A stretch of DNA of 54,360 nucleotides, counting the filler, from Dimargaris cristalligena (Eukaryota), in the NCBI GenBank assembly GCA_003614675.1. It is 2 parts of 2 records of this genome, joined end to end, with 100 filler letters (N's around TTAATTAATTAA, not from the genome) between each part and the next. Parts side by side here need not be neighbours in the genome. Positions count along the whole stretch, not along the records: positions 1 to 27,159 come from ML002522.1; 1 more part is not named here. One strand, 5' to 3'. This document shows positions 1,604 through 53,241 of this stretch, piece after piece (positions within the stretch are counted from its first letter, which is position 1; the number at the start of each line of letters is the position of its first letter). The position numbers and the translations under genes are program-made. The notes beneath the pieces are model-generated. The model saw nothing but the letters and a program-made list of their open reading frames with translations, had not been told where the DNA came from and searched no databases.

Positions 1604-4600
1604 ATGGCTTTCCAACCCCCGTCGCGGGCGGTGCCCGTTGTCCAACCCGTTAGCACGGCCTCCAGACTGGATCACATCCATCCCAGCAGGTGGTCTGTAG
1701 ATGATGTGCACTACTATTTTGCCAACACAGCGCGGCAGGGGGGCATCGCCACCATCCTCCGGAATCTTAAGGTGGACGGCCCCACTTTGTTGGGCTATAA
1801 TAACAGAGAGGCGGCGGTACAAACCCTTGGACTGAAGTCCTATCCCCAACGTACCCGATACTTCGAATGCCTCCAAAAGCTCATAACCCAATATAACCTG
1901 CCGCAGCCACCAAAAGAGAAACCGCCCAAAGGCTCCAAATCAGCCACACCCCCCTCGGACCAGGCTACTTCTAAATGGACCAAGCGGAAACGGCATCGGG
2001 ATTTGTCACTCAGGTGCGCTCTGGCGGACACGGCGGTTAAGGCTGCCGGTGTATCAAAAGGCCCAAATGCCGCGTCGATTACTGCGACATGTCCTCCACT
2101 GGTCAAACCTGACCCCAATCGGGATATCCTGGCCAGATCATCTCCCGCCCGCCACAACCCAACTAAACGCCGATTAACTGAACCTGAGCCGCGACCCGGT
2201 CAGCTGACGGGTAGTACCAAAGGCAAATCGAGCAGCCACTCGCCAAGGTCGACAAAATCGTCTACTCCCAGAAATCATCCAACTGCGAACCACCTCGCCT
2301 CGACTGGGAAGGTTAACACTGGCCGTGCCAAAACGTACATGTGGTCCGTTAAGCCCATCGATGGGAAGGTCCAGCAAGTTACGCTGTCGCCGTCCCCCAA
2401 TCCCACATCTACCAGCAATGGCTCGCCAGTCGAAGCAGGCTCAGATCGGACTAAGCATTCCCATTCATCGGCCGATTTAACAGTTGAGACCCCTCATGAT
2501 AAGAGTTCGTCAATCCCGAGACCTCTGGCAACCGGCTCCCGCACCATTCCTCCAAAAGAACTACAGGGACCTAATGGCCGAGACTCCATAACGGACCCAA
2601 GTTGCGATTATAATCGACCTCTTGTGACTAGTTTCATAAACTCTGTCTCCTTCCCAGTGCCATCCGATACTTCTGCATCCCCACGATTACACTCAGATCA
2701 AGTCCAGGGAATAGGTCGGTACAAGGCCTACCGCCGGCCAACTTCTCCCCACCAATCCAGCGCCATTTCGCCGAGTTCGGATTCTTCTCGTGACCGCCGG
2801 CACTCCTCCCACCATCGCACTAACGACTTTCAGGATGGACCACGTTCATTTAATCGCGCAGTATCCCCATCTAGGCCTGAACCTCGGTCTCCACCTCAGC
2901 ATTTTCATCAAACTGTTAATCGTCTCACCCAGGATAGTCACAAAGGACCCCGCCCCGCTATACGCCAATCTCGTTCTCGATCCCGGTCCCAATCTCGCTC
3001 TCCTACCCGCTATTCTCGACACCAGCCATTGACTTCCCATCCGCTTCACGATCATCAGAACTTCTCAGATCCGAATTCGATTTGCTCTGATTCAACTCCC
3101 CGACATCAAATGCTATACTCTGTACGCCCCCGGCCACCTTTGGTAACCCCTCTGAAGGAAGACGCGGTCCTTGTCGCACTATTCCCTCCAGCAAACCAGA
3201 CCAATCACTCTAGCCCCGACTACATGGAGGATGACGCAGAAATAAGCCCCCCGCAGTCACCGGGCAATTCCCCCAGATCTGTATTAGCCGACCTTATTCA
3301 TGGTACCCCCACGACCTATCGAGCACCCCCGCGTGCCTATCCTCCGTTATTTACCGATGACGAAGGGCTTAATTACTTGGCCAAACTGTTTCCGGAGGAT
3401 CCCCCGCTCACACGACGCGAAACGCGATTCCTCCCGCCTACCCGGCTATTCAACACGGAGGTCTTCTTCCGGCATAGTGAGGGTCAACGGCGCTATACTA
3501 ACATTTCCGCCGCCCCACTGTACAACGAATCAGGCGAGCCTGTTCCCCATAGCTTCTGGTTTCGCCGACCTCCAGAGTGCCCGCCTTTTTCTTTTTCGGG
3601 CGCGATTCCGTTTTCCGGTACCGTTCCTGAACCCGACGCATCGCCCGACTCAGGTCCCCAATCCGGCCCCCTCGATCGGTATCTCGGTACCCGGTGCACT
3701 ATCCAACGTAAAATGCGTCGTCTTTTGGCCAACCCGCCTGTGCGGCGCTACCCCACTCAAACTGTGTATCAGCCGATCGATGATCCTATGGCGCCGGTGT
3801 TTATTGTTAATCGACAGGGCATCGTACTGTCCCATTTCCAAGACGATATGCCCCCTCCGCTAGAATCTGGACATGCCAGGTCCCCCGCCCCCGAATCAAA
3901 GGACGCGAATACTGTCGATCTCTGTTCCAATGATGGGGATAAATCGATTGATCTGGCTGATCTAGACAGGGATATCCAGGATATTGTGGATGGTGGCTTG
4001 GGCGGTTTGGTCGACTTGAGTGATGCATGTGATACCTTTGAAGAAATGTCTGAGGACGAGGAAATGCCGAATGGTTTGGTTGATCCCAGGGCGATAGATG
4101 ATGTGGTACCGGATGCTCTGACCCCGGCGGTACCCCTAAGTGGGGACACGCCGATGGCGGCCTCGTCCCTCTCCCGCTTTTTCTCGGTTGCCGTGGACCG
4201 ATCAGCCCTCGCCACGGGCAATTCACCAACCAGTCGGGCTCTTGATTTCGATGCGGACGGTATTCGACAAGATCCCGATGATCCTATTCTACCCCTCTAT
4301 GGCGAATCGGACTATGCCACCGAAGAACTGGATTCCTCAGATATGAGCGGCGACGAAATCACGTCGGCCAAGGCCCCGGGTGGTGAGTCGGCGACCCCCG
4401 CCAGTCTTCCGATTGATGCGCTTGTTGACGAATTCCTGGTGGGCTACAGGGAAGAGTGGCGGGCCCGAAAGCAACCGAAACTAGAGGCTCGGCAGTGGAA
4501 GCTATGGCATACGGAACAGGCCCGGCTGGACGAATTCAAAGACCAGCTCGAATACCTCAAAGAGGACCGCCTACCACGTCACATTAAAGCCCTCCGCGAC

Positions 4601-7600
4601 ATGGGGATCCGCAACTCGCGGGAATTCCGCCGGATTGGAGTAACCCTTTGCGAAACCGTCTTCTCGATGAGTGAGCTCGAATGGAAAATCCAGTTGGTTT
4701 CCGGACCCGTTCCCGAAACCCCAGTATTTGCGCGGTCCTCTAAGCAGGAATCCCCTTCCTCCACTACCCCCACAAGCCGATTCAAGCGCAAGCCCCTTAG
4801 GGACCAGACTGCTGATGGTAAACCGGACGTGAGCCCTTCAATTTCGACCCAGTCGCAACCCGTGAAACCTCCGGGTGCCCCACCCAAATTTGCAAAGAGC
4901 GACCAGAACATGAAGCCTGCTGTTGGATCTACTTCGGCCAAGGAACCCGATAACATGGACCTATCGGATGACGACTCGGACGATGACTGGGACAATTTTA
5001 TTGACGATTCCGATATGCTGCCGGAAGACCATGAGCGGTTTGGGCACTATCTTAAGGGGCCTAAACGAGCTCCAACTATTCGAAAGCGGCGCGGTACCCC
5101 AATTATTCGGTCACCATCGCTAACCGGGGAGTTGTCTAACGACGCACCCAGCGCTGATGGGCCCGTGCCATTGCCCATTCAGCCCGGCTCTCCGTCCCCG
5201 CCGATCGAAGAGGAGCAAGCACCTACTGCGCCCTTAAAGGTTGTATCTGGTCCTCCGGCTGCAACTATTACTCCGGAGCCTAAATCCTCACCTGAGCCTA
5301 GACCAACCTTGCCTGTATCCTCCTCAAAGACTGAGGCCAAAGTCGAAGTCGAAATCGATGTTGATGACGAACCACAGCTACCTGCGGCTATAAAAGTGGC
5401 CCAATCGCCCATTGCGTTATCGAGCCCGGGATACACAACCCAATTATCGCCGGTAGAGGAAATCACCCTAGCCAGCGGTTTTGTACCAATTCCCCCACCA
5501 CCGATCAGGGTTTCTCGGATCAATGAGGTCATCGTTCTCGACAGCACGGATTCCGAAGACGAGGGTGTCGATATGGATATTTCGGCACCTCAGTCGCCGA
5601 AGGCCTCTTCCCCGAGCACTGCCGCGGCCCCACGGGTGACCGTACCATCAACGCGTACATCCACCACTACCAACATCAAACCAGACTCCCCGTCGATGTC
5701 CATTGGCTCTTTATTGAATTTGCCCCCTGAGACAGCGAAACCCACTGGTACTAATTGCAAAGCCCCGCTATTCGCCAGGCCCCCCTCCCCAACCTTACCA
5801 CGGCTATCTACCGGAATTGGGAAGTTACCTTTAAATTCGGGAGGCGCCGGCGGAGGTCTGCTCAAAAACCCAAATGTTGCCGACTCCAATACACCGGCTG
5901 CCCCATCGCCCCGCTCACTTTCGGATTACGTTAGGGAGGCATTGCGATCGGCCTCTTCCACAAACAATAACACGCTTAAAAAGTTAGGTGACTTCCTCCT
6001 TGACCCATCGGCCCTTTCCTCAAAGGACGACCAACCTTCGGAGAACTCGCCCGCAAACCAGGTCAAGGGCCGGAAAAATATCCGACCCATCCGGGAAGAG
6101 GGGGAAGATGTCCTTAAGCTAAGAAACGCTATTCGGGAAAAGGAAGAAGCATACCAGAATCGGCTACGGGAGCTTGCTAACCAGCCGAGCGAACCAATCA
6201 CGGCCCTAACCACCGGCGACCCGGAAGCGACTAGCGACCGGCAAACCAAGCCCAATCCAGCGGCCGACGAAACGACTGCGCCAGAATCTAGCCAGGTCCC
6301 GCGCGTGATCATCAATTTGGGACACGACCCGGGGGAGAGTGACATTTATATACCCAGCTTTTTGGCTCGCCATATTAAACCCCATCAGGTCGAGGGGGTC
6401 CGCTTCATGTGGAAGAATTTGGTGATGTTCGCCAAGAGCGGCTGTATTCTGGCGCACGCCATGGGTCTGGGGAAAACCTTCCAGGTGATCGTGATCGTCT
6501 TCGTGCTGCTCGAGGAAGTACGCAAGGGCAACCCGGCCATTCCGGAGCACTTCCGGTCCCGACGGATTCTCATTTTATTACCCCCCACGCTACGGAAGAA
6601 CTGGATGCGGGAAATCAATACCTGGATCCCTAAAACATGGCTACGAAGGACTATTGGCCACGTATTTGCCCTGGACGGAACCATCCATAAAAACACGGAA
6701 GCCCGGTTGGCGTACCTACATGACTGGTACGAGCACGGTGGTATCCTGCTAACGGGCTACCAACTGTTTCGGGATCTGTCCATTGGTATGTCAACATCGG
6801 GCAAAACCCCCCTATCCGATGACGAGCTGACTCTCTACCAGCGGTATCTGTTGGATCCCGGTCCAGCGCTTGTGGTGGCTGATGAGGGACATACCATCAA
6901 GAACCCGAATTCCAAAGTGTCCATTGCCACCAAACGCTTTAAAACCAAAAGTCGGGTGTGCCTGACGGGTTATCCCCTACAAAACAACCTATCCGAATAC
7001 TGGTGCATGGTGGACTTCGTCCACCCGGGTTGCTTGGGCCACCTCGCCGACTTCCGCAATGCCTACGTACACCCGATTGAGAACGGGATGTACCCGGACA
7101 GTACCCGCAGCGATGTACGCCTCTTCCGGACGAAACTGTATATTTTGCACGATATCCTCAAGGATTTCGTCCTGCGCCGGGAGCCGGTGGTACTTCAACG
7201 CGAACTGCCGCCCAAGCGCGAATTCGTCATTACCTGCAAACTGCCGGCCCTGCAGCACTCCCTCTACACGGAAATCCTGGAGAACGAATTACAATACGGC
7301 AATGCCTTTAATGCGGGTAAAGGCTTGATTGCCAACGAGATTATTCTACGCAATATTTGTAACCACCCCTACATCTTCAAACTATCCCTCAACAAGCGCT
7401 TTCGAGCTATCCAACCCCGGGGTTCGTCGGGATCATCCTACTCCAGCTCGGGGGGCGATGGACAGTATAAAACCCTCCCTTTGGAAACGGATGAGGACGG
7501 ACAGGCTATCCCCGAGGAAGACGGGGAAAAACTCGAGGCCATGATCCCGTTCCTAGTAGCCATCACTGACAAGGCCTTCCAACGGGTGCCCGATTATAAG

Positions 7601-8602
7601 GATATTAGCCATGGTATCAAAATGGTGGTTCTGATGCACATGGCCGAGATGTGCGTGCGGAACGGGGACAAGATGCTCATCTTTAGCCGGGGTATCCCCA
7701 CGCTCGACTACATCGAGTCGATCTTCCGCACCGCCTCCTGGTCCTCCTTCACCAATAAACGACGGTACATGCGTCTGGACGGGACGACCAACATGGCCGC
7801 CCGCCAGCCTCTGGTCGAGGAATTCAATTCAAACCCCAACCTCAATTTCTTTCTCATTTCGTCGGGAACGGGCTCGCTGGGCCTCAACTTACCTTCCGCC
7901 AACCGAGTGGTGCTGATGGATGCGGGGTGGAATCCCAGTTTCGACGAGCAGGCCATCGCACGAGCCTACCGGTACGGCCAGACCAAGCCGGTGTTCGTGT
8001 ACCGACTGACCACGTGCGGTACCATGGAAGACAAGGTTCTCAAGAATAACGTACATAAAATCGGCTTGTCGAAACGGGTGGTGGACCATAAAAACGTCGA
8101 AAAACGGTACACCAAAAGCCAACTCAAGAGCTACCTCGATATTCCCCCGTCCGACCCACCTAGCCTCGTACCCTATATTCGGGCCCGACTCCCTTTGGAC
8201 CAGGATCCGTACCTTCGGAGTATCGTCGACACTTTGGCCGACCAGTTGGTGAATATTGACGAACGGTCGTTAGACAGTCCGATCGTGGAAGACGAAATGA
8301 CGGCTGAACACCTCTACGAGGCTAACTGTATGTTACAGATGGAACGGGACCGTATTTCGGGTAAGCCCGTGGCCCCCATCCCGGTCCAGGGCCTCCTACC
8401 CACCGAGCGGCCCGTCCCCATTTACGATACGAATGGTCGGGATATCACTCATACGTTCCCCAACTACCAACCGCCGCAACTGCCCTCGGCTCCGGCTTCA
8501 GACCCAGCCCCAGTCCCTCCTCCATTACCGCCTATTCCGACGTCGCAAATGCCCTCGACCCACCTTATGGATTTCCATGGGTTCTCGGAGCAACAGCCGT
8601 AA
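1604..8602 (+). CDS. SNF2-family chromatin-remodelling ATPase, ATRX/RAD54L2(ARIP4)-like, with N-terminal SAM-like domain; intronless, 2332 aa
   Basis: Motifs GCILAHAMGLGKTFQ (I), DEGH (II), LTGYPLQNNLSEYWCMVDF (III), RLDGTT, GSLGLNL (V), QAIARAYRYGQ (VI) are typical of the ATRX/ARIP4 branch. Long S/P-rich disordered N-terminal region. Confidence 0.93.
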   Translation: MAFQPPSRAVPVVQPVSTASRLDHIHPSRWSVDDVHYYFANTARQGGIATILRNLKVDGPTLLGYNNREAAVQTLGLKSYPQRTRYFECLQKLITQYNLPQPPKEKPPKGSKSATPPSDQATSKWTKRKRHRDLSLRCALADTAVKAAGVSKGPNAASITATCPPLVKPDPNRDILARSSPARHNPTKRRLTEPEPRPGQLTGSTKGKSSSHSPRSTKSSTPRNHPTANHLASTGKVNTGRAKTYMWSVKPIDGKVQQVTLSPSPNPTSTSNGSPVEAGSDRTKHSHSSADLTVETPHDKSSSIPRPLATGSRTIPPKELQGPNGRDSITDPSCDYNRPLVTSFINSVSFPVPSDTSASPRLHSDQVQGIGRYKAYRRPTSPHQSSAISPSSDSSRDRRHSSHHRTNDFQDGPRSFNRAVSPSRPEPRSPPQHFHQTVNRLTQDSHKGPRPAIRQSRSRSRSQSRSPTRYSRHQPLTSHPLHDHQNFSDPNSICSDSTPRHQMLYSVRPRPPLVTPLKEDAVLVALFPPANQTNHSSPDYMEDDAEISPPQSPGNSPRSVLADLIHGTPTTYRAPPRAYPPLFTDDEGLNYLAKLFPEDPPLTRRETRFLPPTRLFNTEVFFRHSEGQRRYTNISAAPLYNESGEPVPHSFWFRRPPECPPFSFSGAIPFSGTVPEPDASPDSGPQSGPLDRYLGTRCTIQRKMRRLLANPPVRRYPTQTVYQPIDDPMAPVFIVNRQGIVLSHFQDDMPPPLESGHARSPAPESKDANTVDLCSNDGDKSIDLADLDRDIQDIVDGGLGGLVDLSDACDTFEEMSEDEEMPNGLVDPRAIDDVVPDALTPAVPLSGDTPMAASSLSRFFSVAVDRSALATGNSPTSRALDFDADGIRQDPDDPILPLYGESDYATEELDSSDMSGDEITSAKAPGGESATPASLPIDALVDEFLVGYREEWRARKQPKLEARQWKLWHTEQARLDEFKDQLEYLKEDRLPRHIKALRDMGIRNSREFRRIGVTLCETVFSMSELEWKIQLVSGPVPETPVFARSSKQESPSSTTPTSRFKRKPLRDQTADGKPDVSPSISTQSQPVKPPGAPPKFAKSDQNMKPAVGSTSAKEPDNMDLSDDDSDDDWDNFIDDSDMLPEDHERFGHYLKGPKRAPTIRKRRGTPIIRSPSLTGELSNDAPSADGPVPLPIQPGSPSPPIEEEQAPTAPLKVVSGPPAATITPEPKSSPEPRPTLPVSSSKTEAKVEVEIDVDDEPQLPAAIKVAQSPIALSSPGYTTQLSPVEEITLASGFVPIPPPPIRVSRINEVIVLDSTDSEDEGVDMDISAPQSPKASSPSTAAAPRVTVPSTRTSTTTNIKPDSPSMSIGSLLNLPPETAKPTGTNCKAPLFARPPSPTLPRLSTGIGKLPLNSGGAGGGLLKNPNVADSNTPAAPSPRSLSDYVREALRSASSTNNNTLKKLGDFLLDPSALSSKDDQPSENSPANQVKGRKNIRPIREEGEDVLKLRNAIREKEEAYQNRLRELANQPSEPITALTTGDPEATSDRQTKPNPAADETTAPESSQVPRVIINLGHDPGESDIYIPSFLARHIKPHQVEGVRFMWKNLVMFAKSGCILAHAMGLGKTFQVIVIVFVLLEEVRKGNPAIPEHFRSRRILILLPPTLRKNWMREINTWIPKTWLRRTIGHVFALDGTIHKNTEARLAYLHDWYEHGGILLTGYQLFRDLSIGMSTSGKTPLSDDELTLYQRYLLDPGPALVVADEGHTIKNPNSKVSIATKRFKTKSRVCLTGYPLQNNLSEYWCMVDFVHPGCLGHLADFRNAYVHPIENGMYPDSTRSDVRLFRTKLYILHDILKDFVLRREPVVLQRELPPKREFVITCKLPALQHSLYTEILENELQYGNAFNAGKGLIANEIILRNICNHPYIFKLSLNKRFRAIQPRGSSGSSYSSSGGDGQYKTLPLETDEDGQAIPEEDGEKLEAMIPFLVAITDKAFQRVPDYKDISHGIKMVVLMHMAEMCVRNGDKMLIFSRGIPTLDYIESIFRTASWSSFTNKRRYMRLDGTTNMAARQPLVEEFNSNPNLNFFLISSGTGSLGLNLPSANRVVLMDAGWNPSFDEQAIARAYRYGQTKPVFVYRLTTCGTMEDKVLKNNVHKIGLSKRVVDHKNVEKRYTKSQLKSYLDIPPSDPPSLVPYIRARLPLDQDPYLRSIVDTLADQLVNIDERSLDSPIVEDEMTAEHLYEANCMLQMERDRISGKPVAPIPVQGLLPTERPVPIYDTNGRDITHTFPNYQPPQLPSAPASDPAPVPPPLPPIPTSQMPSTHLMDFHGFSEQQP

Positions 8603-15314: not shown

Positions 15315-16664
15315 TTATAAAGTGAACATCAGCTGATTTTCCATCACATTCAAAATAGCTTCCTGGTCCACGCCCGTTTGGGTTTCCAAGAGTTGTCCGG
15401 CCTGAGGGAATTCATTGAAAAAGTGTCCCGAGTTAAAGGTCGTTGCCTGTTCAGCCAAAATAGTGCGGCACATTTCCTCCTTGGCGTTTCCGGCTTCGGG
15501 ATGACACCAGTCTAGCAAATAGGGATAGAGGTTTGTCAGACCTGGGTATAAATTACTCGCATCTTCCACCCGGGCCATTAACAACTGGACGGCGGTGGGT
15601 TGGTTGAACCAAAACACCCACATGGCCGAGGTAAAAATATCCAAGGGCAGGTCAAGTTGCAAAAAAAAAACATATTGAAAAATTTCTCCAGAGAGTCAAC
15701 GTCCCCCTGAACCGCCATCACCTTCACCGACCCATTCAACTGGGCCTGCCAGGCTAAAAAGACCCCAATAATGAAGTCGGGGGCATCGCTCTCCGTAAAT
15801 TGATGAGTTTGCACAAACTCATGCATAATATCTTCAACGTGAGTTAATAGCACTATGACCAGATCGGAATGACCCAAGCGAAAAAGCCGGGGGGGGAACG
15901 CTGTGCTGAAGGGAAATCGTTTCAACACTATTTCCATCGCCTTCCTCCAAATCAAACGAGATTTGATTTCCGAGAACGTAGTCGTAGATGAGTTTCTTGG
16001 TCTTAGATTGGGGGACAGTAGCGAAAAATACCCGGATGTCTTGGTTATCATCGGGTGCCAGCTGGGCTTGAAAAAGCTAGTTCCAGAAACTAGTTTGCAT
16101 CTATCTGATAATGGGGAGATGCAAAGTTAAGCGCATGTATGTACATTGGAGCCCCAGGGGCTAGATCAATTAAATAGCACCATTTAAATTATATATCACT
16201 TGCATTCGACACCAACCGTACCTTTCATATCGGGATCTAGACAGCCATGGGGTTAAACTTACCGCTTCAGTAATTTCATCAGCTCCCCTGATTTCAGCTA
16301 ATATGCCATCCAACTGACCTTCGGGCTGAACGGACAAGAGGGAGGCGTCTTGGTGTCTTAGCATTTCCTGTAGGAATTGCAGAGCGATGGCAGTGTGTTG
16401 AGGCGTGAGCTGTGGGATTGGCGTACTACCATTGTCGCCAATTAGGGGAACGGCAATTCCGGCTTCGTCTAGTCGTCGTTCAAGTTCAGCGGCTGCTGCT
16501 CTGGTTAGGCGTACATTCTCGATAGTGGGGGTTGGGCCGGATTGGGGCCGCCCAATCGGGAGGTAAGGATGATAGTCCTGCTCCGGAACAGGGGAGCCCA
16601 ATAGAGTTGGAGCTAGCATGCCGATGGCCGGTAGCGCAAGCAAGAAGTAGGTCAACTTAAACAT
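15315..16664 (-). pseudogene. Lineage-specific secreted protein gene with one intron (donor near 16221, acceptor near 16101), interrupted by at least one frameshift (pseudogene or homopolymer assembly error)
   Basis: Signal peptide MFKLTYFLLALPAIGMLAPTLLGSP. Coding-like sequence continues through ORFs 16051-15578 and 15662-15315, which switch frame at the A10 tract 15661-15670. A second shift is possible at G8 15889-15896. Confidence 0.6.
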
Positions 16665-23837: not shown

Positions 23838-24299
23838 GGTGCCGGGGTTATATTTATAGTTGGGCTAGGCACCAACTGAATAAATAAAAGTATGGTCAAT
23901 CGAAATTGGCTCCGTAAAAACTGTTTGATAACTATACAATGGGAAAATGGGTAGTATTGCGTGGGGTGTAAAGGTTTGACTAGTCACGAAATGGGTAACT
24001 CGTTCACTTCTAATCTAAACTAAGTAGCCAACCAACCCCCCTACTCCCCTTGTTGTGGTTTACAAGAGCATTGTTTTTAATAATCCAAGCATTGTAGGCT
24101 CTTTGGGCTTCAAACTATCACGTGACGTTGTTTGGGGGCTATTACGCACTGTTATTTATTGGAGTATAAACTGGATAGCTACATGGCTCCAATCGGGGTA
24201 TAACTAAAATTTAACCATCTAAATATCTATAACTAGTGTAAGAAAATGGCCAAAACAACCGGAAGAGTTTGACAAATAAATTCAAAACTAGATATTGGC

Positions 24300-26040
24300 T
24301 TAATTATTAGCTGTAAGATTTTGAATTGATACCCGTTCATAGCCTTGGTCCCCAAAACGCTGAAAACCAAGGCTCACTAAATGTTGAAGACTTTCGAAGT
24401 TTTCGGGGTTTAACTGGCGCGCAAAAAGATTGACATCGAAGGCATCAGGCTTTTGGGGGCCCAAGTCAGGCAAGCAGGCCTTGTCCTGTTCATTAAAACC
24501 CGATATTGGTATCAAGATGCCGATTTGGCCATTGTTCTGAAGGTGGAGATAATTTGGGATGACAAAATCTATGGTTAGCCCTTGGTCCCAATCATTTAAA
24601 CCATCATCATCTTCCTGGTCATCTGCATGGGCGACCTCGGCTAGATTTTCGATAATGGGTGCCACTTCGGTCACTCTTACAAACTCTCCATGGGTCAAAG
24701 GACAGCCCCAGACCGACGCTAAGTATTCCGCACCGTGGTCTAGACCGTAGGCCTGCATTTCGTAAACTAGGGGACATTGATTGGCGAGTCGTCTATTCTC
24801 CGAAAAAAAGTTCAATAACAAATCAAAAACGCCCGTAAAGGTGCCAAGGGCATGGGTCTCGCCAAACATAGCGGCCAATACAATCGCAAAGCGATTGGTC
24901 TTCTGGTAAGCATAATCCGACTGAATATGATTGCCGGAGTGGTGTGCCTCTACGGAGGGTTTAAGATTGAGTACAAATGCTTCCATATCGTTAAATCGTC
25001 CTGTAGTGGCCAGCCGAACCAGGATTAAATTGACCAACGTATTAAACACCTCCAACGACAGTTTAGCTATATGTAAATCGACCCGCAGGCCGTTAACCTT
25101 ACTGCGACCCAAGTTGGCTATCCGATTCCATTCGGTGTGTTCCATGCCCTCCTGTCCCAAATCATGCATGCCCGGGCCAGTTAGAACATCGAGTACCTGT
25201 AGGATATGCATAGGGTCGACCAGGTCGTCCACTATGGCCATTAGGGGTAGCTGTGGAACTAGGGCCGGTCGTTTCAATGAGGTGAGATCAATGAACCGCC
25301 AGGCGTCTTTCTGGAAGATTGGGTCATCCCGGTTATCCTTAAGATATGCATAGTAGTCATAAATTTCAGACCACCGCTTGTTTTCTTCGGTCTGTCGGGT
25401 AGAATCGCTCATGTACTGAAGCATATCCCCCTGGTTTGAATAACTATTTACGAATAGTGTGGTGAATAAGGGTTGGTGAATCAGTTGCTGCCAAATCTGC
25501 TCCGGGCGTTCCAACCCCTCAACGAGCGGTTTGTTGGCCTCCGATAAAGCCAAACCTTTGCACATAGCCATATACTTGCCCTGTTCATGGTCGGTTAAAA
25601 CGAGTAAAAGTACACACGGGGTCAAACAGGATGAACCAGTGGCGAGGGGTTAAAATGAGGTTAGTGTCAGCCAAGGTTAAGCCAGCTAGCCATGCATTCT
25701 AAAATATGATTTCGGATAAATTATGGGTCGGAATACCCTCTCCGTGTTGGCTTAAATATACCGAGACGTTACAATTCTCTTCATTTCCTGACGTGTGACT
25801 TACGATAGTTTGTTCGTATGGATGCTTATTGACAGCAGCACTAAGAATCGTTGATGTTTGGGCCAATGCATCTCGGGTTTCAAAGTATACATCATTGATG
25901 ACGTTGTAGAGAACCTCAAAAGGAAGTTTTTCTAAATGATTCACGCCGTTAGCCGGTGCGGATAACGCTGTCTGTGCTTCAAGCCAGAACGAGAGACCCA
26001 GAGTGGTCAGGCTTAAAAAATGGGTATCCGATAGTTTCAT
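24300..26040 (-). CDS. Lineage-specific secreted protein with N-terminal F-box-like motif; 2 exons (26040-25762, 25580-24300), about 519 aa
   Basis: Signal-peptide-like MKLSDTHFLSLTTLGLSFWLEAQTALSAP, then LEKLPFEVLYNVINDVYFETRDALAQTSTILSAAV. GT..CAG phase-0 intron joins ORFs 25699-26142 and 24300-25625. Confidence 0.75.
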
Positions 26041-26986
26041 AGATGCAAGTTGGGGTCGTCGTGATAATCTACTAAATAGCAACGAGTGCTGGTAGGAAGG
26101 GAGATCGGCGTAAATACATTCGTCTAGGGGAAAAATAGTCAAGGGAGTTGGGGATAGGAAGAATGGGAGTTATATAGCGTTGGGGCGTGTACTTATATGT
26201 ACGGGAAACCATCTTGGGGATAGGGTCGCATGTGGTAGTTTACACAAATAATTACTATACTTGACCTAGTCCCTCGAGTATTTTTACCTCAGCTTCATCG
26301 ACACTGGCGCACTGTAGGCAGACGGCTGGCTGGGAGGGAATTCTTCCATCGCCCCCCAGCATCCCCAGCCACCCTAAGTATGACCCTCTCTCGTGCCTTT
26401 TTATGGAGCTTGTACAACATGCAAAATATATGAAGCTTTTGGTCACTAAAACCAAGCCAGTGTGCATTTGTTACACGCAGACCTTCACCGCGAACCCCAT
26501 TGCGTGGCACGGTCTTACTATTGGCGACCTCTGGGGCACTAGTGCACTAACAGATGGCCCGATTCGCTATATTAGTTACCCGACCACAACTCAATGGTGG
26601 CAGTTTAACACTGACTAGCGGTCGCTGTAAAACCTATGGTTATCTCACTTCGGATGAGAGGTATGATGGCTGGAAATATACCAAGAGGGTTAGAAATAAA
26701 GGAAGCTTGTCGGATAGGGGCAGCGGAAAGCGGTGGAATTTGCTAGTAAAAAAATGTTACGTGGGGCACTTGGAATTTTCCCCAATTGAGGAAATCGAGG
26801 ATGCCCCACCGAAAGATATACTATACATTTGCGCTAATGCTAGATGCATTTTTTTTATCGAAAAGGTATGATTATGTACTGCTGCATAGTGCAGGATTGA
26901 GGGAAGCTTATTTTTATCAATTTCTTTATCGGTTTTATCAAGACCGGATCATTACTATATATATTTCTTTTAATCCGAAACGGGCG

Positions 26987-27159: not shown

Positions 27160-27259
27160 NNNNNNNNNNNNNNNNNNNNNNNNNNNNNNNNNNNNNNNNN
27201 NNNTTAATTAATTAANNNNNNNNNNNNNNNNNNNNNNNNNNNNNNNNNNNNNNNNNNNN
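27160..27259. other. Artificial contig linker: 44 N + TTAATTAATTAA (27204-27215, stops in all six frames) + 44 N
   Basis: Directly visible; symmetric 100-bp design. Confidence 0.95.
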
Positions 27260-27534
27260 CCCCCACTTGTTCCCAAAGCCCCGACTACGGCGGGCATTGC
27301 TGCATGCTGCTCGAGCGTACGGTGGGCGCTGATTAACTTACTAGTTGCCGGGTACGAATCCCCCCCCCCCCCCCGGTCGTTTCAACACAGAACCTTCCTT
27401 GCCTAAGGCCGACTTTGTTTGCTGATTTTGCTTCCTCTTTCCATTACCAACCACCCTTCACCCTATTCCGCTATTTATTTAAGAAAAATTGACTAATCAT
27501 CATATTTGTATGACTATATATACATGGGAAATAG

Positions 27535-30500
27535 ACTCCATCTTCGAGCCCAACATCTACCCGTCGGTCATCACCTTCCTACGCTGTGGCGGTACTCCCT
27601 TGGATGTGGTCAACTACCTGTCGAATAATTATGTGGGACTGGTCCCCATGTGTGAATTGCTAGCCGACGAATGGTGCACCACCCTGGGCCTGAACGGAAC
27701 CCAGATCATTTACGATACCTTAAAATCGGTAATTTTGGAACGCTTTGACCCCGAACAATTCGATAAAAAAACCATGGGCTCATCGGTAAGTTGACTAACA
27801 CTGGGTTGATTCTAAGTATATATATATATATATATATAAGTCTGTCCATGTCGGCTATCATTCAGCCGTCTATACCAATTCCCGGAAATAATGAAAATGA
27901 GGCGGGCATTGGCATTATGGCATGGTGTCATTAAACCTACCACACCGTGGTCGTTGGGAGCATTATATTTATTACCTCTGTCTCTTATATATATATGTGT
28001 GTACACATAGTCGCCGCCGGATTGGCTAGGCCCAATGATTCAGCACCATATCTGGCGTTCGGTGATTTACGAGTTATCCGAACAGTACCCCAAGAGCGCA
28101 TTCCTAAACTTCGCCATTCAGTCCATTTCCGCCGCGGGCTACCAATCGGAAATCACCAGTGCTACCACCGCCTCCAAATACTTTAACGTCTACAGCAATG
28201 TCCTACTCGATGCCATTAAGGACATTAAGGATGTCAATGAAAGTAATTTTCCCGAGAAATTCGAGGTATTCGAGGTAAGTGACGGGAGGGGGGGGTTCCC
28301 TTCCCTTGAGTCAGGGGAGGGGATGGGTTATTCAAAAATGGATTGTATATAAGCCCTGGCCTTCCATTGGTTTTGACTAGTATATAGCTTAGTTTATTTA
28401 ACCGACACTTCCCAAAGAAGATGTAGGTCGTTGGAGGAATCGATTTTTAAGTTCCACGACCTTGCACTAGCCTAATCCTACCCTATGTTTTCCATTATCC
28501 TTTACAATACCCAATCCCTCCCTCATACACACACCCAATGTCACTACGCTGGCTTCAGAGAATCTGTGCCCAAAATGAGCACACTTACCTAATTGCCCAG
28601 GCCTTGCTTAACAAGCTGATTCAAGAGAATCCCGCGGAGAACTACCCGCTTAAGCGGGTGGTTAACGATCTTGGACAGATTACCGCTCAGAAGCACCAAA
28701 AGTACGTTACACCTAGTCTACGACATCATCGATTTGCAACGTTATACTCATCACTACCAACCTGTTCGATTTTAATAAGTTCAATGTACTTACACTTCTT
28801 ACTACTCCCTCTTGTTTTGGTTACATTATCTCTGTAATATCAGCCCAACTCTCCTGGGCAATATGAATGTATTGCTGGCAGGGTTGCCTGTGTACAATAA
28901 CGAAGTATCCACGGCTATCATGTCGATTAAGCAAAAACACGAGCTCTCCCCTGGTGATCTGGTCGCGGTAAGTTGACTGTCTATTCAGCTGTTCCTGGGT
29001 CTACTACCTATCGAACTGTTAGATTTCTAAACAATGTTACCTACATCATTCCGCATTCCCTCTTCCCTGCCTCCTAACTTCATATCCATTATTATCTTAA
29101 TTACTACGATATATCTCGTTATGCTTTTGACCCTTGGCAATTTTCTTAATATATATATATATATATATATCCATATTCCTGATCTTTATTACATCCATCT
29201 AAATCTGTCCATATAGCTTTACAAATCCTACAAGGGCCCTACCCCTCCGTCCATCGAGTACCTCCGGGACATTGAAATCATTGAATTTCTCCTAGTGAGC
29301 GTATTCCAGCCCCCCTCCGATGCCGGTCGGAGTCACTTCGCCACCCATACCGTAGGTCTGCGCCCCGAAATCAAGGACAAGTACCTCTGGCTCCTGGGCC
29401 AAATTATCGGTTCGGCCCCGGCATTTTATCCATCCCCAACCGCAGGGGAGGGCAATGGTCATGACCATGGTCAACAGTCGACCGCGCCCGATTCGGTTAC
29501 TGCCACCGAAGCGACCTACCGCCAGTTGGTGGCTCTCGATAAACTACTCATTAGTAAACCCACCGCCGCGGATTTGGCCCAGTTGACGGGGGTGATTCTG
29601 GATCAATATATCGAGTAAGTTTGGAATTATCCGTTGCCTTTGATACACCGGGGATTATATATATATATATATTAAAGGAGAGGGCGATGAGAGTCCTTTT
29701 ACCAACCCTTATTTAACGACATGTATCCTCTATTGCTATTATTATTGGAATGCTGGCTGAATTGTTTATGGATCATAGCCCCTAAATCTCTAACGATAGT
29801 TCCATCTGCTATTTTTTTTATTGCTACCTCATTCTTTTTATTTCTATGTTTTGGGGGACCCTTTAGTGTCCCGATCCTCGCGGCAGCCGTAATTATCTGG
29901 CTACGCCATGTCTTACAGGATGATAATTATCATTACTACGAAACGTACTTCCGGCTCACTGAGGCCCCGCTCCCGCATTTGCTCCTTGAAGAGGTAAGTC
30001 TGGCTTTGCCGGTAATTTGCCACTAGGTCGCCTTAGAGATGCTTACTTTGCATGGTCAACTATTATCAATATATATATATATATATATATATGGTATAAC
30101 TGATATAACTATCATTTATCCGTTGGTTTTATTTACACTACTTCCCTCCACACATGGATAGATTGCCCACCGGCACCCCGGCCTTCAAGACCGCATCTTC
30201 AGTGCGTACCAAGAGAGCTTCACAGCGCGGATCAGTACCATCGGAGCTGAACTAATGGTAAGTGGCCGTGTTGAATTCCGTAGGGGGCCTCTTATTGAAG
30301 TCACCTACCTAATGCCACAGTGACTGTGTTGACGTGTGCCCAAAGGGTTACTGCTAATACTGCCGTGGGCTGTATTTTCCCACCCCCCTTCTCTTCGCTT
30401 CCCTCCCTTTGCTTTTGGAGAGAACCCCTTATCCCTGCGACATATCTATCCCCCTGTGGCATATGCAGCTTTGCTTCCCCCTTGTTTTGCCCGCAGCATG

Positions 30501-31946
30501 GCAATAATATCTTTTCCTCATTATCGTGCAAAATCCCCCCAATGCCAACCATACTAACTCCCATATTCACTCTGTTATTCCATGGCCCGCCTACCGATGG
30601 ACGGATCCTGTACATTCCATATGTGTATGTGTGTGGGTGGTCCATGCTGCCCATTCCTTCCTTGCTGTATTCCCTTTTCCCGCTCACGCCCGAAACTCCG
30701 ACCAACTCCTATCTCTTACCGCCTGGTGACAAACCCCCTAAACAGACCGCCCTGCAAAAATCGGTCTTGGATCGAATGCTCAATTTGATGGCTATGGGCT
30801 ACGCGTTACCCGTTCTTAACTACGTTAAGCGGCTGCAGGAGAAGATTGACGAAAGTCTGACGGTCCACTTTGTGCGCAAGGTAAGTAGAACTTGGGGCGT
30901 ATACAGGTTGTATTTATTCCCACCGCCCTGCTTAGATATGTTAATATATATATATGTATATGGCGGGGAGCTCAGATGGTAGATCTGAATTAAGTCGATA
31001 TGGGAGTAGTTCAACCAGGCTGTATAACGAAAAGTCCATTTGGGAGAAGTTCAACCAGGCTGCTTAACGAAAAATCCATTAGACCGGGTCACTATTACTG
31101 GTTAAAATGATTTCACCCACATACTCTCACATACACGAATCATGTAAAACCTTATACAGCTGGGCTGAATTTCATCCATATGTTGTAGTGGGGGGTGCCA
31201 TTTGACTAACTTTTTGACCCATGGCCCGACTGCTTTTATTCTGATTTTTACGGTTTATACCACTCCCCTCCCCCCACCCCTTGTACTACTAGGTTTTGGA
31301 CATGATAGCGGTACCTTATTCCAAACGGGTCATCAGCATATTATTGGAAATAGCGGCACCGGTCGTGAATACTATCATCGACGATCAGGACTACCACTTG
31401 GCGTTTTCGCGGTTAATCGGTAAGTGTAGGCATGCACTGCCATAATAGTTCACTTCTTTATTTATTCGATACACCGAAGGATTGGTCTTCCACTTTGCAC
31501 AGTGATATATATATATATATATATTATTTCTTATATTTATTTTCGTAGCATTCGTGCTTAATATATTAGTTCACCATCCTTCCTCTCCACTTTTTTTTAC
31601 AGCTTGGCCCGAGCCAAGGAGCTTTTATTGGTGGGTGGGGGGATTACAGTCGTCCGCAATCTAATGCGTATCGTGGGCTATATTCCTGTTCGCCACTGTA
31701 TTGGGGGTCCATACGCTTCCCGAAAGAATGGCTGATTTTGGCGACCCTAATTTCTCACACCGCTTGCCCATTTTATGATTTACAAAAACTTATTATTATT
31801 GGGTTTTTCCCTCCCGCCACCATTAAGATGACCTAATCGACAGCCCGGAAGACGTTCTTCAACCCGGCGAAACGCTATCCCCGGACACCGTAACCCTGCT
31901 TACATCTATGGAAGAAGAACTACCCGCCAACTCGGCTTTTAGTTAA
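27535..31946 (+). CDS. NELFCD: Negative elongation factor C/D (TH1 family), 5' end lost in the gap; visible exons 27535-27785, 28011-28274, 28559-28701, 28844-28967, 29217-29614, 29867-29993, 30162-30257, 30746-30880, 31293-31419, 31828-31946
   Basis: DSIFEPNIYPSVITFLRCGGTPLDVVNYLSNNY, PDWLGPMIQHHIWRSVIYELSEQYPKSAFLNFAIQSISAAGYQSEITS, EHTYLIAQALL, LDRMLNLMAMGYALPVLNY and VLDMIAVPYS match NELF-C/D blocks as I recall them. All GT-AG introns keep frame (about 594 visible residues). Confidence 0.9.
31001..31178 (-). mobile_element. MITE-like element, copy 3 (178 bp, with 40-bp tandem duplication of one end), inside a NELF-C/D intron
   Basis: TA|TGGGAGTAGTTCAACCAGGCTGTATAACGAAAAGTCCATT repeated twice (31001-31080); other end CTTATACAGCTGGGCTGAATTTCATCCA|TA. 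Confidence 0.85.
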
Positions 31947-42872: not shown

Positions 42873-44457
42873 TGTATTAGAACGCCAGTGGAAGTCCGAA
42901 TGCCAATGGGCTACAAGTTATATTATTTTGAAGGGGAGGGAGGAGAGGGGGACAAAGGGAATCGCGAACCGACTATCGAATTCGAAACAAGCCGATGGTC
43001 AACTACAGCGGTTTGCAAATGTAGCCATGTAATAGGACCTAACTAACTCCCGAATGCCTCCAATCCCTCTCCCCCACTTGGACAAAGAACGCGACACGGA
43101 GGAGCTATACAGGCTTAAAGGTGTGTTAAGGAGTGGTGGGAGTATGAATATGGGGAGTACAAGAAAGAAAAACCCCCACGAGGGAGAATATGGCCAATGG
43201 TAATTGTCCATCCCTCCACCAACTGTGAATGTAACACAGCCAAGGTAGGTGGGCCAGTCGCTGTAGCGCCGCGATTCGGAGACGATTGATCTGGGAATTA
43301 ACTCGACGAAGACTCTTCCTTTACTATTCTTCTCAAACAACCTTGCCAAGCCGGAGACTCAAGGGCCTGGCCAATACTTTCTTCCAGGGTTTTTTCTCTC
43401 CCGGAGGATAGTTTACCCTGGGTACATTTAGGAATATTCAAGTCTGTGGGGACTTGCTGTTTTTGGCTGAGATGCGTACATTAAGTCTACAGCAGTGACG
43501 CTCTGCGGTCTATATGCATTGCAAATGGGGCTTGTAATATCCGGTTCAACGAGGTAGCTGGTTTGCGACCTGTGCCCATCGTAATTGAGGTATTATCCCG
43601 ACTTCCCACTCCAAGATTTAGGCATGGCAAGAGTATCGCTGGGCAGGCACTTCGTATGGTGCCTTGCAACCTAGCTAAGTGAATAACAGACCAAGAGATA
43701 ATACAGGATAAGGTGCCCCAGCCCACCCGACCCCCCTTTTCCCATTTTAGTTGCATCCTATAAATTTAATCCACTCCCATGGTGTCTACGGCGGGGGGCT
43801 GCAGTGGAGCAAAATGGTAGAATGGATAATCAGGTCCTGCGACCTTGGCTTGGTTACACAATGCCGGTGCCCCGGCGGAGTGCGGGTATTAGCCTCCCCC
43901 TATCCCCCATCACCATCCTTCCCCCCAATTCCCTACCCCCCTGTAGGTAGGTCGGCCAATTATGGCAATGACAAACTTGCACGGGGCTCCATTTTAACAG
44001 TGGAATGGGTTGGTGCAGGTAAGGGGGGAGGGTACCAAAAGACATTGCTACTCGCGGTTTACTACTACCATAGTCAGCAATGGCCAATAACCACTTAGAT
44101 TAGGTCATCAATGCGAATTATGGAGGTTTCACAATACCCCGTTTGGGAGGGACCGGGGACCCACCTTCATTAAACTATTGAAGAGGGTAGAACAAAATAG
44201 GAATACTGTAATATCTATGGAGGCGACAAAGTACAAGTGGAGGTGTGAAATAGGTATAGATATACTCACCTACGCCGCTCCCTCTCTCTCTCTCTATCCG
44301 CCCCCCACCCACCCTCTCACTCCATAATTCTCTGTATTAAATGTTGACTGCCCTCCAAAACTTGCTAGACGGTTATAATTTCACATTCTTCTATTATTAT
44401 TCAACTTCCATCCGCCCCCACCTCTCACTTGACAACCATAACTTGCTATTCACCATT

Positions 44458-45615
44458 ATGTACTACCGTATTGCACTGTGGAGTATACTGGCTGCTGGGG
44501 TGGTTGCTGCTAATCCGGAGCTGAACGACTCCACTCCGTTGACCACCCTTACCCGACGCTCGACCAACTCACCTATGACTAGTGGCGCACACGCAGCCGC
44601 CCTCGTTCGGCGCTCACCGGCTTTCTGGAACAGGTCCTCGAATCCCAATTCGGAAATGACGGGCGAAGAATCGACCGACCCGGCCAACAATTCCAGTGAG
44701 CCCTCCAATCATCCCCCTAAATTCATGAGTGCTGTAGGCCTCGGCAAAGTATATAGTCAATTCAATGACCCCGAACGAAAACATTTTATTCGGCGGTGGA
44801 AGAACAAATCCAAGCCCACCGAAGATACCTTCCAATCTGAGCCCAATGCCTTAAATGAACCGAGCACCGGGCCATTTGGGTCGGGCCAACAAGTTTTGGG
44901 TAACCTGCTTTTACTGGCTACCGGATATACACCATCGCCATCGAACGAAGACATAAGCGGGGACAAAGACCATGAGAACCTCTCCAATATCGATGACAAT
45001 GACACTACAGACTATGGCCATCAGAGTATGGGTGGTGGCTCCTCGGCGCCGCGTACCTCGGGTTATACGTACCTACCCACTGATAAGGAAGCTCCTCAAG
45101 ACCCAGGATATTCTATTTCTGATTCTACCTACCCCAATATCTACTTGAACCAAAAGGGAGAGCCTATCGAAAATGGCGTTCGCATGCATAGTGAAACAGC
45201 TCAGGACGCCGATAAGAACCAACGTGCCAAACAATGGTATGATGGTATAAGCTACATTAAAGTAAAGGATTCGGAGCCGTCGGATACGGGGGAGAACGAA
45301 TCATTGTCGCCATTGATTAATGGTAGTAGGGCTCCCGCCGATAAATTGGCTGAAGACGATCGCAATTATGATAGTGATGATGATGACGACGACGGCGATA
45401 ATGACCTTGCACTCTTGAAAAACTACAGTGACGGATACAATAAAAGCCCTACCTTGCTTTTATCACCAGTAGACAACATTCCCGGTGCCCACCAATTAGT
45501 TGGGGCTTTACCTTTACCCTCCCAGATGGAATCATCGGACAATAATGACGAAGCCGCCCCAACCGAACGTGCGAGGAAGAATTGGTGGGAACTCTCCACC
45601 TCTGAAAATAATTAA
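44458..45615 (+). CDS. Secreted low-complexity protein, paralog A (385 aa from ATG 44458), intronless
   Basis: Signal peptide MYYRIALWSILAAGVVAA, LTRRS and LVRRSP sites, S/N/D-rich body with acidic tract. Confidence 0.8.
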   Translation: MYYRIALWSILAAGVVAANPELNDSTPLTTLTRRSTNSPMTSGAHAAALVRRSPAFWNRSSNPNSEMTGEESTDPANNSSEPSNHPPKFMSAVGLGKVYSQFNDPERKHFIRRWKNKSKPTEDTFQSEPNALNEPSTGPFGSGQQVLGNLLLLATGYTPSPSNEDISGDKDHENLSNIDDNDTTDYGHQSMGGGSSAPRTSGYTYLPTDKEAPQDPGYSISDSTYPNIYLNQKGEPIENGVRMHSETAQDADKNQRAKQWYDGISYIKVKDSEPSDTGENESLSPLINGSRAPADKLAEDDRNYDSDDDDDDGDNDLALLKNYSDGYNKSPTLLLSPVDNIPGAHQLVGALPLPSQMESSDNNDEAAPTERARKNWWELSTSENN

Positions 45616-48028: not shown

Positions 48029-49216
48029 ATGTATTACCATGTTAATGTGGTATCTAGCGCCGTAGTGACGACGGCCATGTTCGCCGGCTCGGCTTTAGCT
48101 ACCTCTATCCCCACGGATGTCCCTGGGACTAGTCAAGGTATGGCATTCAGCACCCCGATGCATCTGACGCGCCGTGCCCCCCTATTCTTAAACTGGCGGA
48201 GCAGTCAAGCTTCCATGACCCCTTCAACCACCGACCAAGCCTATAGTTACCTGGACAACTCGGCAAGTGACTCGGCTTTATACACGGAGACAGACTCTAT
48301 CAGCTCGACATCGACCCGTCGCCGAGACCGTATCGCCCAGCGTCTACCCAATAAAATTACCGGGGCCAATAAGTCCGTCTCCGAACGCAACTCGTTTCAA
48401 AAATGGCTTAGTAAAAGTCAAAGCGACTTGGCCGGGGTTAGTACGGTGGGGTCAACCGACAAGCCATTCACGACCTCCAGTAGTTGGAGTCAGAGCAATG
48501 AGTTTAAACCCCCCTCCATCGATGACATCTCCTTGTCTGAGAACTACCACGCCCCCGATGACAGCCGCATTGGCTCCGATACTGTGGGCCAATCCGGTGG
48601 CAATGACCTGAATTGGAGTAATTTTTTCCAAGGCCCTCATGAAGATGATGACGAGGACGATGGTGGTGATTATAATAGCTACGGGTTCAATCGTGACTTC
48701 CCCGATAGTACGATATCAACGAAAAATTCCGAGCAGAACCAGGTTGAACTTACACCAGAAGAGCTTAAGCAAGAGAAGCGCAAAAGAAGAAGTCTGAAGA
48801 ATCAAGAGGAGCTTGAAAAAGCGGCAGCGCGTTATCATCATGCCAACATGAACGACTACGATAAACCTCCCATCGGATATCCGCTTTATGCCGGCCACGC
48901 CGAAACTAGGTCGACATCGGCAAACGTGAACCAACAAACGAAGGAAAGCGGCGCTGCCATTTTACCCGATACCCCCGTGCCGGATCTCACCAACGACGAT
49001 GACAATGACGATGAATTTTTCGATGCTGAAGATGGTAGTACTTGGCCTAACTATCAGTCGGAAGCTCATGATTACTCGTCTAAGCACCCTTCCTTACCCG
49101 GTTATAATAGCCCAGTGTTGAAGAATAACCGTGCTGCAAACAACTATAGTCCGATCAGTGAGCCTGGCTTGACTAATCATGATGATGAGAACACTTGGTA
49201 TATCGATGACCCTTAA
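48029..49216 (+). CDS. Secreted low-complexity protein, paralog B (395 aa), intronless, with FFAT motif
   Basis: Signal peptide MYYHVNVVSSAVVTTAMFAGSALA, HLTRRAP, DDDNDDEFFDAED. TATA-like TATAAAT at about 47771. Confidence 0.85.
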   Translation: MYYHVNVVSSAVVTTAMFAGSALATSIPTDVPGTSQGMAFSTPMHLTRRAPLFLNWRSSQASMTPSTTDQAYSYLDNSASDSALYTETDSISSTSTRRRDRIAQRLPNKITGANKSVSERNSFQKWLSKSQSDLAGVSTVGSTDKPFTTSSSWSQSNEFKPPSIDDISLSENYHAPDDSRIGSDTVGQSGGNDLNWSNFFQGPHEDDDEDDGGDYNSYGFNRDFPDSTISTKNSEQNQVELTPEELKQEKRKRRSLKNQEELEKAAARYHHANMNDYDKPPIGYPLYAGHAETRSTSANVNQQTKESGAAILPDTPVPDLTNDDDNDDEFFDAEDGSTWPNYQSEAHDYSSKHPSLPGYNSPVLKNNRAANNYSPISEPGLTNHDDENTWYIDDP

Positions 49217-52144: not shown

Positions 52145-53241
52145 ATGCATTATCGTTTCGGCGTATTGTCTAGCGCGCTGGTGGCGTCGACTGTGTTCGC
52201 TGGCTCGGCTCTAGCGACCCCTACTCCCGCGGGTGCTCTTGGGGCCAGTCGAGGTATGCCTCCCGGTACCCCAATGTATCTGACGCGCCGTGCTCCCTCA
52301 CATTCATCCTGGTGGTCCAGTGGGACTGACATGACGACCACCGACCAGTCCAGGCAAGGCATCGACTTCTCTCGGTACAACAACAACGAGGAAGAGGGTA
52401 CTACCAGCGCCCCACCAGCCCGCCATCGCGATCGTGTGCGTGATTTCATTAACCGAAAGTTGAAAGGGACCGACAAGCCTGATTCAAAGCGTAGCCAATT
52501 TTATAATGCTATAAAATCCAACCTGAGGAGCTCAGACAATACGAGCACGGCGGAATCCAGTAGCTTGAACCAGGACGACAAGTTGATGGTAAACACCCCC
52601 ATCAACCCCGTCACCTCTTCGGTTGACAACTACGCCCCCGAAAGCAATAGTGTGCACCCAGATGCAACGATGCAAGCTAATAGGGTTCGTGAAGATTGGG
52701 AAGACTTTTTCCAGAGTCCTACTAGCACTGCCTCATTCCCCTTTACCGAAAACTCCGACAAGGTTGAGGTCGAACCAGCAATGTTGGGAGGAGTCAATAA
52801 TAACCAACACAAGGAGAAACATATTCCTATCGTTGTACGACCCCCCCCCCCGTGCCCGTCTATGCCGATGAATACGACCCCCTTACCTATGGTACCAATC
52901 CCAGCCACGTTAACTACCCGGAATATCAGAGATTAGATGGTGTGGCCCAACACTATGGCTTTGGCGATGGAGGGGTCTCCCACGGTGGTGCAAGTTTTGG
53001 AAAATCGTTTAAGAAATCCCTCGAACTCACTGAGACGTACCTCTCCCAATGGAATTCAAACCCGGATTGCTATTCCCCTAAGCTGGCGTCTTCTATTCAA
53101 TCAAATGACCACATTGTATCAAGAGCATCCACGAAGAATTACAATAACGATAACGGTGATAATGAAGACAATGAGTTTTTCGATGCTTTAAGTGAGGCAC
53201 ACGTTGAATACCCCATGTCGCCCAGAGTTATTCCTAACTAA
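52145..53241 (+). CDS. Secreted low-complexity protein, paralog C, with a frameshift at a C11 tract (52841-52851); FFAT motif in the distal frame
   Basis: Signal peptide MHYRFGVLSSALVASTVFAGSALA, YLTRRAP. Colinear with paralog B (RHRDRV/RRRDRI, WEDFFQ/WSNFFQ, PVYA/PLYA, EFFDA). ORFs 52145-52936 and 52852-53241 join if the C run is 9 or 12 nt. Confidence 0.75.

Follow-up and report, generated by a model that had tools for sequence, protein, structure and literature searches.

The window analyzed here, the whole stretch of 54,360 nucleotides, comes from the haustorial mycoparasite Dimargaris cristalligena. It is eukaryotic DNA with introns, and the housekeeping genes in it encode an SNF2-type helicase, a CoA-transferase III, a DEAD-box helicase, and DNA polymerase epsilon subunit B. 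One housekeeping gene adjoins the gene of interest, which lies on the minus strand and encodes 505 residues in two exons (Table 1). The first exon encodes a signal-like start, a short linker, and an F-box-like motif, and the second encodes the remaining 426 residues. The original prediction described a signal peptide fused directly to an F-box-like motif, followed by about 430 residues of helical-looking orphan domain. Its quoted peptide is reproduced by the minus-strand frame that begins at the ATG at 26040, in which position 25831 closes codon 70, and the observation of a signal-like N-terminus together with an F-box-like motif is confirmed. The fusion also holds, but with a linker of 7 residues in the window's copy, and the orphan domain is present, but behind an intron that the prediction did not include. 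This intron has the donor GTAAGT at 25803, a branch-like CTAAC near 25664, and its acceptor at 25581, and its position is common to the family of related genes described below.

Table 1. Features of the signal-plus-F-box gene and its flanks in the window.
Feature	Position	Strand	Basis or remark
TATA-like box (TATATAA)	26170..26176	-	about 135 nt upstream of ATG; sequence pattern alone
Exon 1, 79 codons	25804..26040	-	
Predicted signal peptide, residues 1-27, -3/-1 site after Ser27	25960..26040	-	in-house heuristic; a weak score of 1.71
Short linker (residues 28-34) that lacks an in-frame Met ahead of the F-box	25939..25959	-	sequence
F-box-like motif, residues 35-79, Leu39-Pro40-x-Glu42	25804..25938	-	conservation and models
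Phase-0 spliceosomal intron, 223 nt, 41 codons past the motif's Leu	25581..25803	-	deposited protein agrees
Exon 2: mostly helical orphan domain, candidate substrate-binding part	24300..25580	-	sequence and model
AATAAA polyadenylation-like signal	24155..24160	-	sequence pattern alone

A deposited protein (P0182; RKP37234.1) matches this gene model exactly, starting as exon 1 and ending as exon 2. Its cluster partner, a 505-residue D. cristalligena protein, matches exon 2 in full, and of the two deposited 505-residue versions, P0001 departs from P0182 at residue 41 only. Because P0182 matches both exons and its UniRef name, given by a method that is not visible, is F-box domain-containing protein, the gene model is already on record, as is an automatic F-box label.

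The contig that carries the gene ends about 1.1 kb upstream of the ATG, at a stretch of N at 27160-27259 with a 12-base linker midway. The SNF2-type helicase (1604-8602, plus strand) is a single open frame of 2332 residues with a DUF7607 match, and its N-terminal region is long and disordered. A multi-exon gene at 27489-30982 (plus strand) includes one exon with a weak Pfam match to TH1 (NELF-C/D; E 6e-7); fungi seldom have NELF subunits.

Signal-like N-termini were called with a heuristic of our own, a charge-free hydrophobic 9-mer followed by a -3/-1 site, at a strict threshold of 1.9 and a relaxed threshold of 1.5. Among 23 paralogs, 19 reach the strict threshold, compared with 90 of 1843 internal control peptides (4.9%) and 910 of 4600 shuffled N-termini (19.8%). 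The relaxed threshold is passed by 22 of the 23, against 9.2% of the internal controls and 36.5% of the shuffled N-termini. The signal-like N-terminus of the original prediction is supported at the family level by these comparisons, but the call for the window's copy is weak, since it passes the relaxed threshold and fails the strict one. Beyond this region, the window's protein has no strong hydrophobic segment (best 19-mer 1.44) and no ER-retention end. The linkers measured in the paralogs vary from 9 to 94 residues, and no shared host-entry motif was found in them, the best motif occurring in 6 of 23 with a shuffle mean of 5.65.

One alternative is that these F-box proteins act inside Dimargaris itself, with the hydrophobic N-terminus bypassed by a downstream start or serving as an uncleaved membrane anchor, and that the expansion serves self-regulation or defence, as in other fungal F-box expansions. 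In-frame Met codons, which could yield a cytosolic form, occur between residue 15 and the motif in 14 of the 23 paralogs. Additionally, the ATG of the window's gene has a pyrimidine at -3, and the genome contains two Skp1-like genes. However, the window's gene has no such Met, and the count in the paralogs is about what would be expected from the 1.6% Met content of such linkers. The hydrophobic segment followed by a -3/-1 site is kept in 19 of the 23, and 11 of the 12 best-scoring PF12937 matches in the genome have no signal call. An intracellular role therefore appears improbable.

The F-box consensus is L-x-x-L-P-x-E with a hydrophobic helix 1, followed later by L-x-x-[TV]-[SC]-[KR]. Within it, Leu-Pro-x-Glu and the hydrophobic positions of helix 1 form the surface that faces Skp1, and these are also the best conserved columns of exon 1 in the family. 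Across the 23 paralogous exon-1 segments the motif Glu is invariant, the Pro is present in 22, the column of the Leu before the Pro is always hydrophobic, and the later Leu is kept in 21 of 22. The family columns thus follow the consensus, with Thr in place of the final Lys/Arg in the window's copy. As judged from the alignments, this conservation exceeds chance, while the exon-2 domains of the same family share a median pairwise identity of just 23%. The Pfam search suggested in the original prediction went against it, as the window's copy had no F-box match at E≤10 and did not reach the curated cut-off (PF00646/PF12937). Among the paralogs, 8 of 23 exon-1 segments matched a Pfam F-box at E≤0.12, one of them above the cut-off, and 15 had no match. 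A profile of the family motif compared with PDB sequences retrieved chance rows only, with no F-box chain at E≤10.

In the full-length AlphaFold2 model, built with 50 sequences (pLDDT 81, pTM 0.82), the motif comprises helices at residues 35-38, 41-50, 53-62, and 64-72; residues 35-79 modelled by themselves reached a pLDDT of 91, with two of the helices merged by DSSP. When the 45-residue model was compared with 48,161 chains by VIA, F-box proteins, classed by entry title and range, filled all of the first 12 rows and 18 of the first 19, at Z-scores of 5.7 to 3.6, all below 8. They included FBXO42 (Z 5.7, rmsd 2.8, 45 aligned), Skp2 (1fs1; Z 5.4, rmsd 1.8, 41 aligned), and AnkB (5k35; Z 5.3, rmsd 2.2, 45 aligned). 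Foldseek likewise returned F-box complexes in 14 of 14 rows, at non-significant E-values of 3.4-9.9. Low scores are to be expected for a motif of 45 residues; the evidence lies in the uniformity of the match list. On these models, residues 35-79 are predicted to adopt an F-box-like three-helix fold, though the predictor may have drawn it from its memory of F-boxes. The claim that the motif fits the F-box pattern is therefore borne out by the conserved columns and by the modelled fold.

The original prediction also suggested modelling the motif with Skp1. F-box and Skp1 are a textbook pair with a solved complex. No Mucorales Skp1 was among the 120 matches listed, so the Skp1 of Gamsiella multidivaricata (Mortierellaceae; P0099) served as a stand-in, and the tool used no alignments. 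The 45-residue motif scored 0.43, against 0.02 for the best of three controls, in a score range where predictions fail more often than they hold, except for pairs that are likely beforehand. The runs agreed in at least 87% of contacts, with a partner pLDDT of at least 66. In calibration, 51 of 78 solved pairs and 2 of 108 mismatched pairs reached the mark, but those that did so with scores of 0.60 or less were just 5 of the 78 solved pairs and all 4 passing mismatches. Because the pair is already solved and familiar, the pass may reflect likeness only. Binding of Skp1 by the window's motif is weakly predicted. Of the two Skp1-like genes of D. cristalligena (L034 on G000:C77 and L035 on G000:C314), one is, across its last exon, about 68% identical to the closest fungal Skp1s, and the other has a long Ser/Thr/Gly/Pro-rich insertion at the acidic loop and a conventional C-terminus.

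These results also bear on the possibility that the proteins stay outside cells or at the interface and keep an ancestral F-box as a structural cap or sorting module that no longer binds Skp1. Such a history would account for the degenerate motif, with 15 of 23 segments lacking a Pfam match, for its absence from some paralogs, and for the modest co-fold score. Cys348 and Cys372 in the exon-2 domain, kept by 19 and 18 of 24 members, respectively, might point to a disulfide and to a role outside the cell. In contrast, conservation is strongest precisely at the positions that would face Skp1, and F-boxes of other subfamilies exceed the Pfam cut-offs behind a signal call (L045, 34.2 bits; L049, 29.1 bits). 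A vestigial F-box is accordingly regarded as unlikely, if somewhat less so than an intracellular role.

The domain encoded by exon 2 is mostly helical in the AlphaFold2 model, apart from a small end portion that includes strands and a flexible, acidic loop of low confidence at residues 378-413. Across the family these domains span 300-430 residues. Pfam assigned no meaningful family to any of 24 subfamily A members or 19 other members, an exon-2 profile compared with PDB sequences gave chance rows only, and Foldseek of the full-length model against the PDB and BFVD found nothing at E≤0.001. Leucine-rich repeats (LRR) after the F-box were not detected by Pfam in any of 24 exon-2 domains, and the model is helical without repeating strands. 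Ankyrin repeats, which follow the F-box in the F-box/ankyrin proteins of giant viruses and fungi, had no Pfam match in 24 members, and Foldseek gave no significant row. The ESM Atlas returned weak leads, including ankyrin and NACHT-associated ones, the best at 0.90 and 0.88 with low recognition; the ankyrin leads scored below 0.9. Designed helical repeats, the best VIA match of the full model (Z 7.2, rmsd 5.5, 171 aligned), were set aside as a common arrangement. Because these fold searches, made with the full-length model, mainly covered residues up to 379, they speak against no particular family.

If no substrate is recruited by this domain, the proteins, if secreted and delivered, might instead act as a Skp1 decoy or sponge, occupying the host SCF and stabilizing its normal substrates. 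The evidence from fold, signal, and co-folding would apply equally to a decoy, and no known type of substrate-binding domain was detected in exon 2. A sponge, however, needs neither about 100 copies nor a large folded domain that has diverged so far, and this diversification would be better suited to the selection of targets. The decoy is for this reason considered rather unlikely.

The window's gene belongs to a large group of related genes. A genome search with its exon 2 gave 43 match rows that merge to 37 loci. The analysis covered 28 of these closer paralogs: a signal-like start and the motif occur together in 23, one is cut by a contig end, and four have no clear motif. The last four (L014, L020, L024, and L032) keep the signal-like start and the exon-2 domain with the F-box lost or eroded, as in the F-box-less members of the SSGP-71 family discussed below. 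A phase-0 donor, chosen among candidates, lies 41-46 codons past the motif's Leu in 20 of the 23. An independent search of the genome with two Pfam F-box models found 64 distinct places, of which 62 were examined, the other two having been counted already as paralogs. A signal was called in 32 of the 62, with a false-call rate above 5% because several Met codons were tried per locus, and a phase-0 donor 39-47 codons past the motif was found in 30 of these 32 and in 9 of the 30 others (Fisher p 1.5e-7). The second exons of the signal-plus-F-box loci form further subfamilies, and five additional exon-2 queries gave 47, 25, 3, 1, and 1 rows.

In union, there are at least 96 exon-2 loci, or 110 when signal-plus-F-box first exons are added. 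These counts include broken copies, with the first exon checked in a minority, and they are lower bounds, built from exon-2 matches and Pfam F-box models. A large repertoire is thus found, in line with the original prediction, and the observation is widened beyond the window to about 100 related copies, of which many combine an F-box with a start that resembles an export signal. Most members are scattered over different contigs. Several contigs (G000:C112, C191, C20, C295, C122, and C12) carry two family loci each, some within about 3 kb.

If the family evolves by birth and death, the window's copy could itself be a decaying member without function. In-frame stops, with introns and pseudogenes counted together, occur in 9 of 43 and 16 of 47 family match rows. 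Nevertheless, both exons of the window's copy are open, its splice signals are canonical, the two deposited versions are one residue apart, and the full-length model is confident, which makes decay highly improbable.

In HHalign comparisons, subfamilies B, C, and E are joined at 97-98% probability. The comparison of A to B gave 42.6% (E 2.6e-4; reversed control 0.25), those of A to C, D, and E gave 2-6%, and that of C to D gave 71%. Based on shared motifs, kinship between A and B is plausible but not firm. Word-indexed protein searches gave 1 and 2 matches; HMMER, run with a profile against 1.84 billion representatives, found 52. The 20 of these that were looked up comprise 16 from D. cristalligena, two from Tieghemiomyces parasiticus, and two borderline sequences, and all those that are named belong to the Dimargaritales. 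The T. parasiticus relatives (E 2.7e-7 and 6.5e-5) are, as deposited, without signal or motif. Two matches, P0051 and P0052 (E 4e-4 and 9e-4), align in several short stretches and are probably chance.

The recruitment of F-boxes by pathogens is a known strategy. VirF of Agrobacterium and AnkB of Legionella are bacterial F-box effectors, and effectors of this kind are delivered by type III or type IV secretion. Like the proposed Dimargaris proteins, they provide a pathogen-made F-box for the host SCF, and the F-box of AnkB superposes on the modelled motif. They differ in having no ER signal peptide, in having LRR or ankyrin substrate domains, and in being encoded by few copies per genome. Cytosolic fungal F-box proteins of the Cdc4/Met30 type, the top PF12937 matches in the genome, share the fold and consensus, but have no signal call, mostly lack the intron at the shared position, and have long open frames after the F-box. 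The RipG/GALA proteins of Ralstonia are also described as bacterial F-box effectors (PMC4617103).

Although the original prediction named bacterial effectors, the SSGP-71 family of the Hessian fly (Mayetiola destructor), which combines a signal peptide with an F-box, is closer. SSGP-71 is reported to have 426 members with a signal peptide, an N-terminal F-box, and an LRR C-terminus, to bind host Skp proteins, and to include some members without an F-box (Zhao et al. 2015, as reviewed in PMC10317074 and PMC4617103). As far as these accounts describe it, the likeness extends to a eukaryotic parasite, a signal peptide and F-box followed by a variable C-terminus, a very large family, and some F-box-less members. 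In the Dimargaris family as well, a large expansion in a parasite appears restricted to one lineage, with at least 96 loci and named matches in the Dimargaritales. In contrast, SSGP-71 passes from insect saliva to wheat, and the Dimargaris proteins are proposed to pass from a fungal haustorium to a fungus; the reported C-terminus is LRR rather than an orphan helical domain; and Skp1 binding is reported as shown for SSGP-71 and weakly predicted here. No sequence kinship between the two was detected in the profile search of 1.84 billion representatives or in Pfam. By analogy, the Dimargaris family may work like the SSGP-71 type without being a member, having no C-terminal LRR. Among fungi, NLS_30765 of Rhizophagus clarus is predicted to be secreted, has an F-box-like domain, and was proposed to act on the host SCF; the account of it concerns a single candidate in a plant symbiont and does not describe a family (PMC4746824). 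According to a 2021 survey of ascomycetes, there is little to support a part for F-box proteins in the pathogenicity of eukaryotes (PMC8146833).

The Dimargaritales are described as attacking fungi by means of an appressorium and a biotrophic haustorium (PMC9866270), and the life cycle of D. cristalligena is reported to be incomplete without a host (PMC6784888). Skp1 is cytosolic or nuclear, so that an F-box that enters the ER and lies on the luminal side cannot reach the Skp1 of the cell that made it. The retention of the motif across dozens of diverged genes of secreted type is therefore most simply explained by its use in another cell. This upkeep, together with the haustorial, host-dependent lifestyle, favours a reading that we consider moderately probable, in which the window's gene is a member of a lineage-specific secreted F-box superfamily whose products serve as substrate adaptors of the host SCF, convergent with SSGP-71. 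The adaptor reading is preferred over each of the four alternatives given above. The translocated effector of the original prediction fares well on the F-box-like fold, the signal at the family level, the haustorium, and the large repertoire, and less well on Skp1 binding.

In the proposed mechanism, the signal peptide would direct the protein to the ER for release at the haustorium, and the mature protein would then enter the cytosol of the host fungus. There, the F-box would bind host Skp1 and join the host SCF ligase. The variable helical C-terminal domain would choose which host protein is ubiquitinated and degraded, and the targets would differ by paralog. Secretion, entry, and hijacking of the SCF are thus all postulated for the family. 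A broader proposal stands at even chances. In it, D. cristalligena has evolved a modular arsenal of about 100 genes independently of bacteria, viruses, and gall midges, each gene pairing a signal-plus-F-box exon with a diversifying orphan helical exon, and the products cross the haustorial interface and reprogramme the ubiquitin ligases of another fungus.

Little has been worked out about how biotrophic mycoparasites keep control of their living fungal hosts. Two papers on the genomes of these fungi discuss proteases, chitinases, and secondary metabolites, and the term F-box is absent from their main texts (PMC9866270, PMC6784888). No report of the family was found in the literature on Dimargaritales, mycoparasites, and Zoopagomycota in combination with F-box, and the expansion is real and probably undescribed. 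A motif that functions only in the cytosol turns the family into a concrete, testable claim of protein transfer between two fungi. If correct, this would be, in the literature searched, the first family of effectors translocated into the host to be described for a fungus parasitic on fungi. Its substrate-binding domain would be an unclassified one that may represent a new class of substrate recognition. It would also be a fungal case of convergent SCF hijacking and a route to learning which host proteins the parasite must remove. The family offers a ready assay in yeast, based on Skp1 binding and target degradation. Were the F-box vestigial, the roughly 100 unannotated loci would still constitute a candidate secreted family.

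Other secreted-looking frames occur in the window. A 164-codon open reading frame at 16170-16664 (minus strand) has a strong signal-like N-terminus and no Pfam match, and probably encodes another secreted orphan. Three neighbouring low-complexity frames on the plus strand (44341-45615, 48029-49216, and 52145-52936) have a signal-like start and an Arg-Arg followed by Ala/Ser-Pro, possibly a Kex2-type site, with no meaningful Pfam match. The first has faint similarity to its neighbours (E 0.08), and the other two are paralogs, with 35% identity over 205 aligned positions (E 1e-25).
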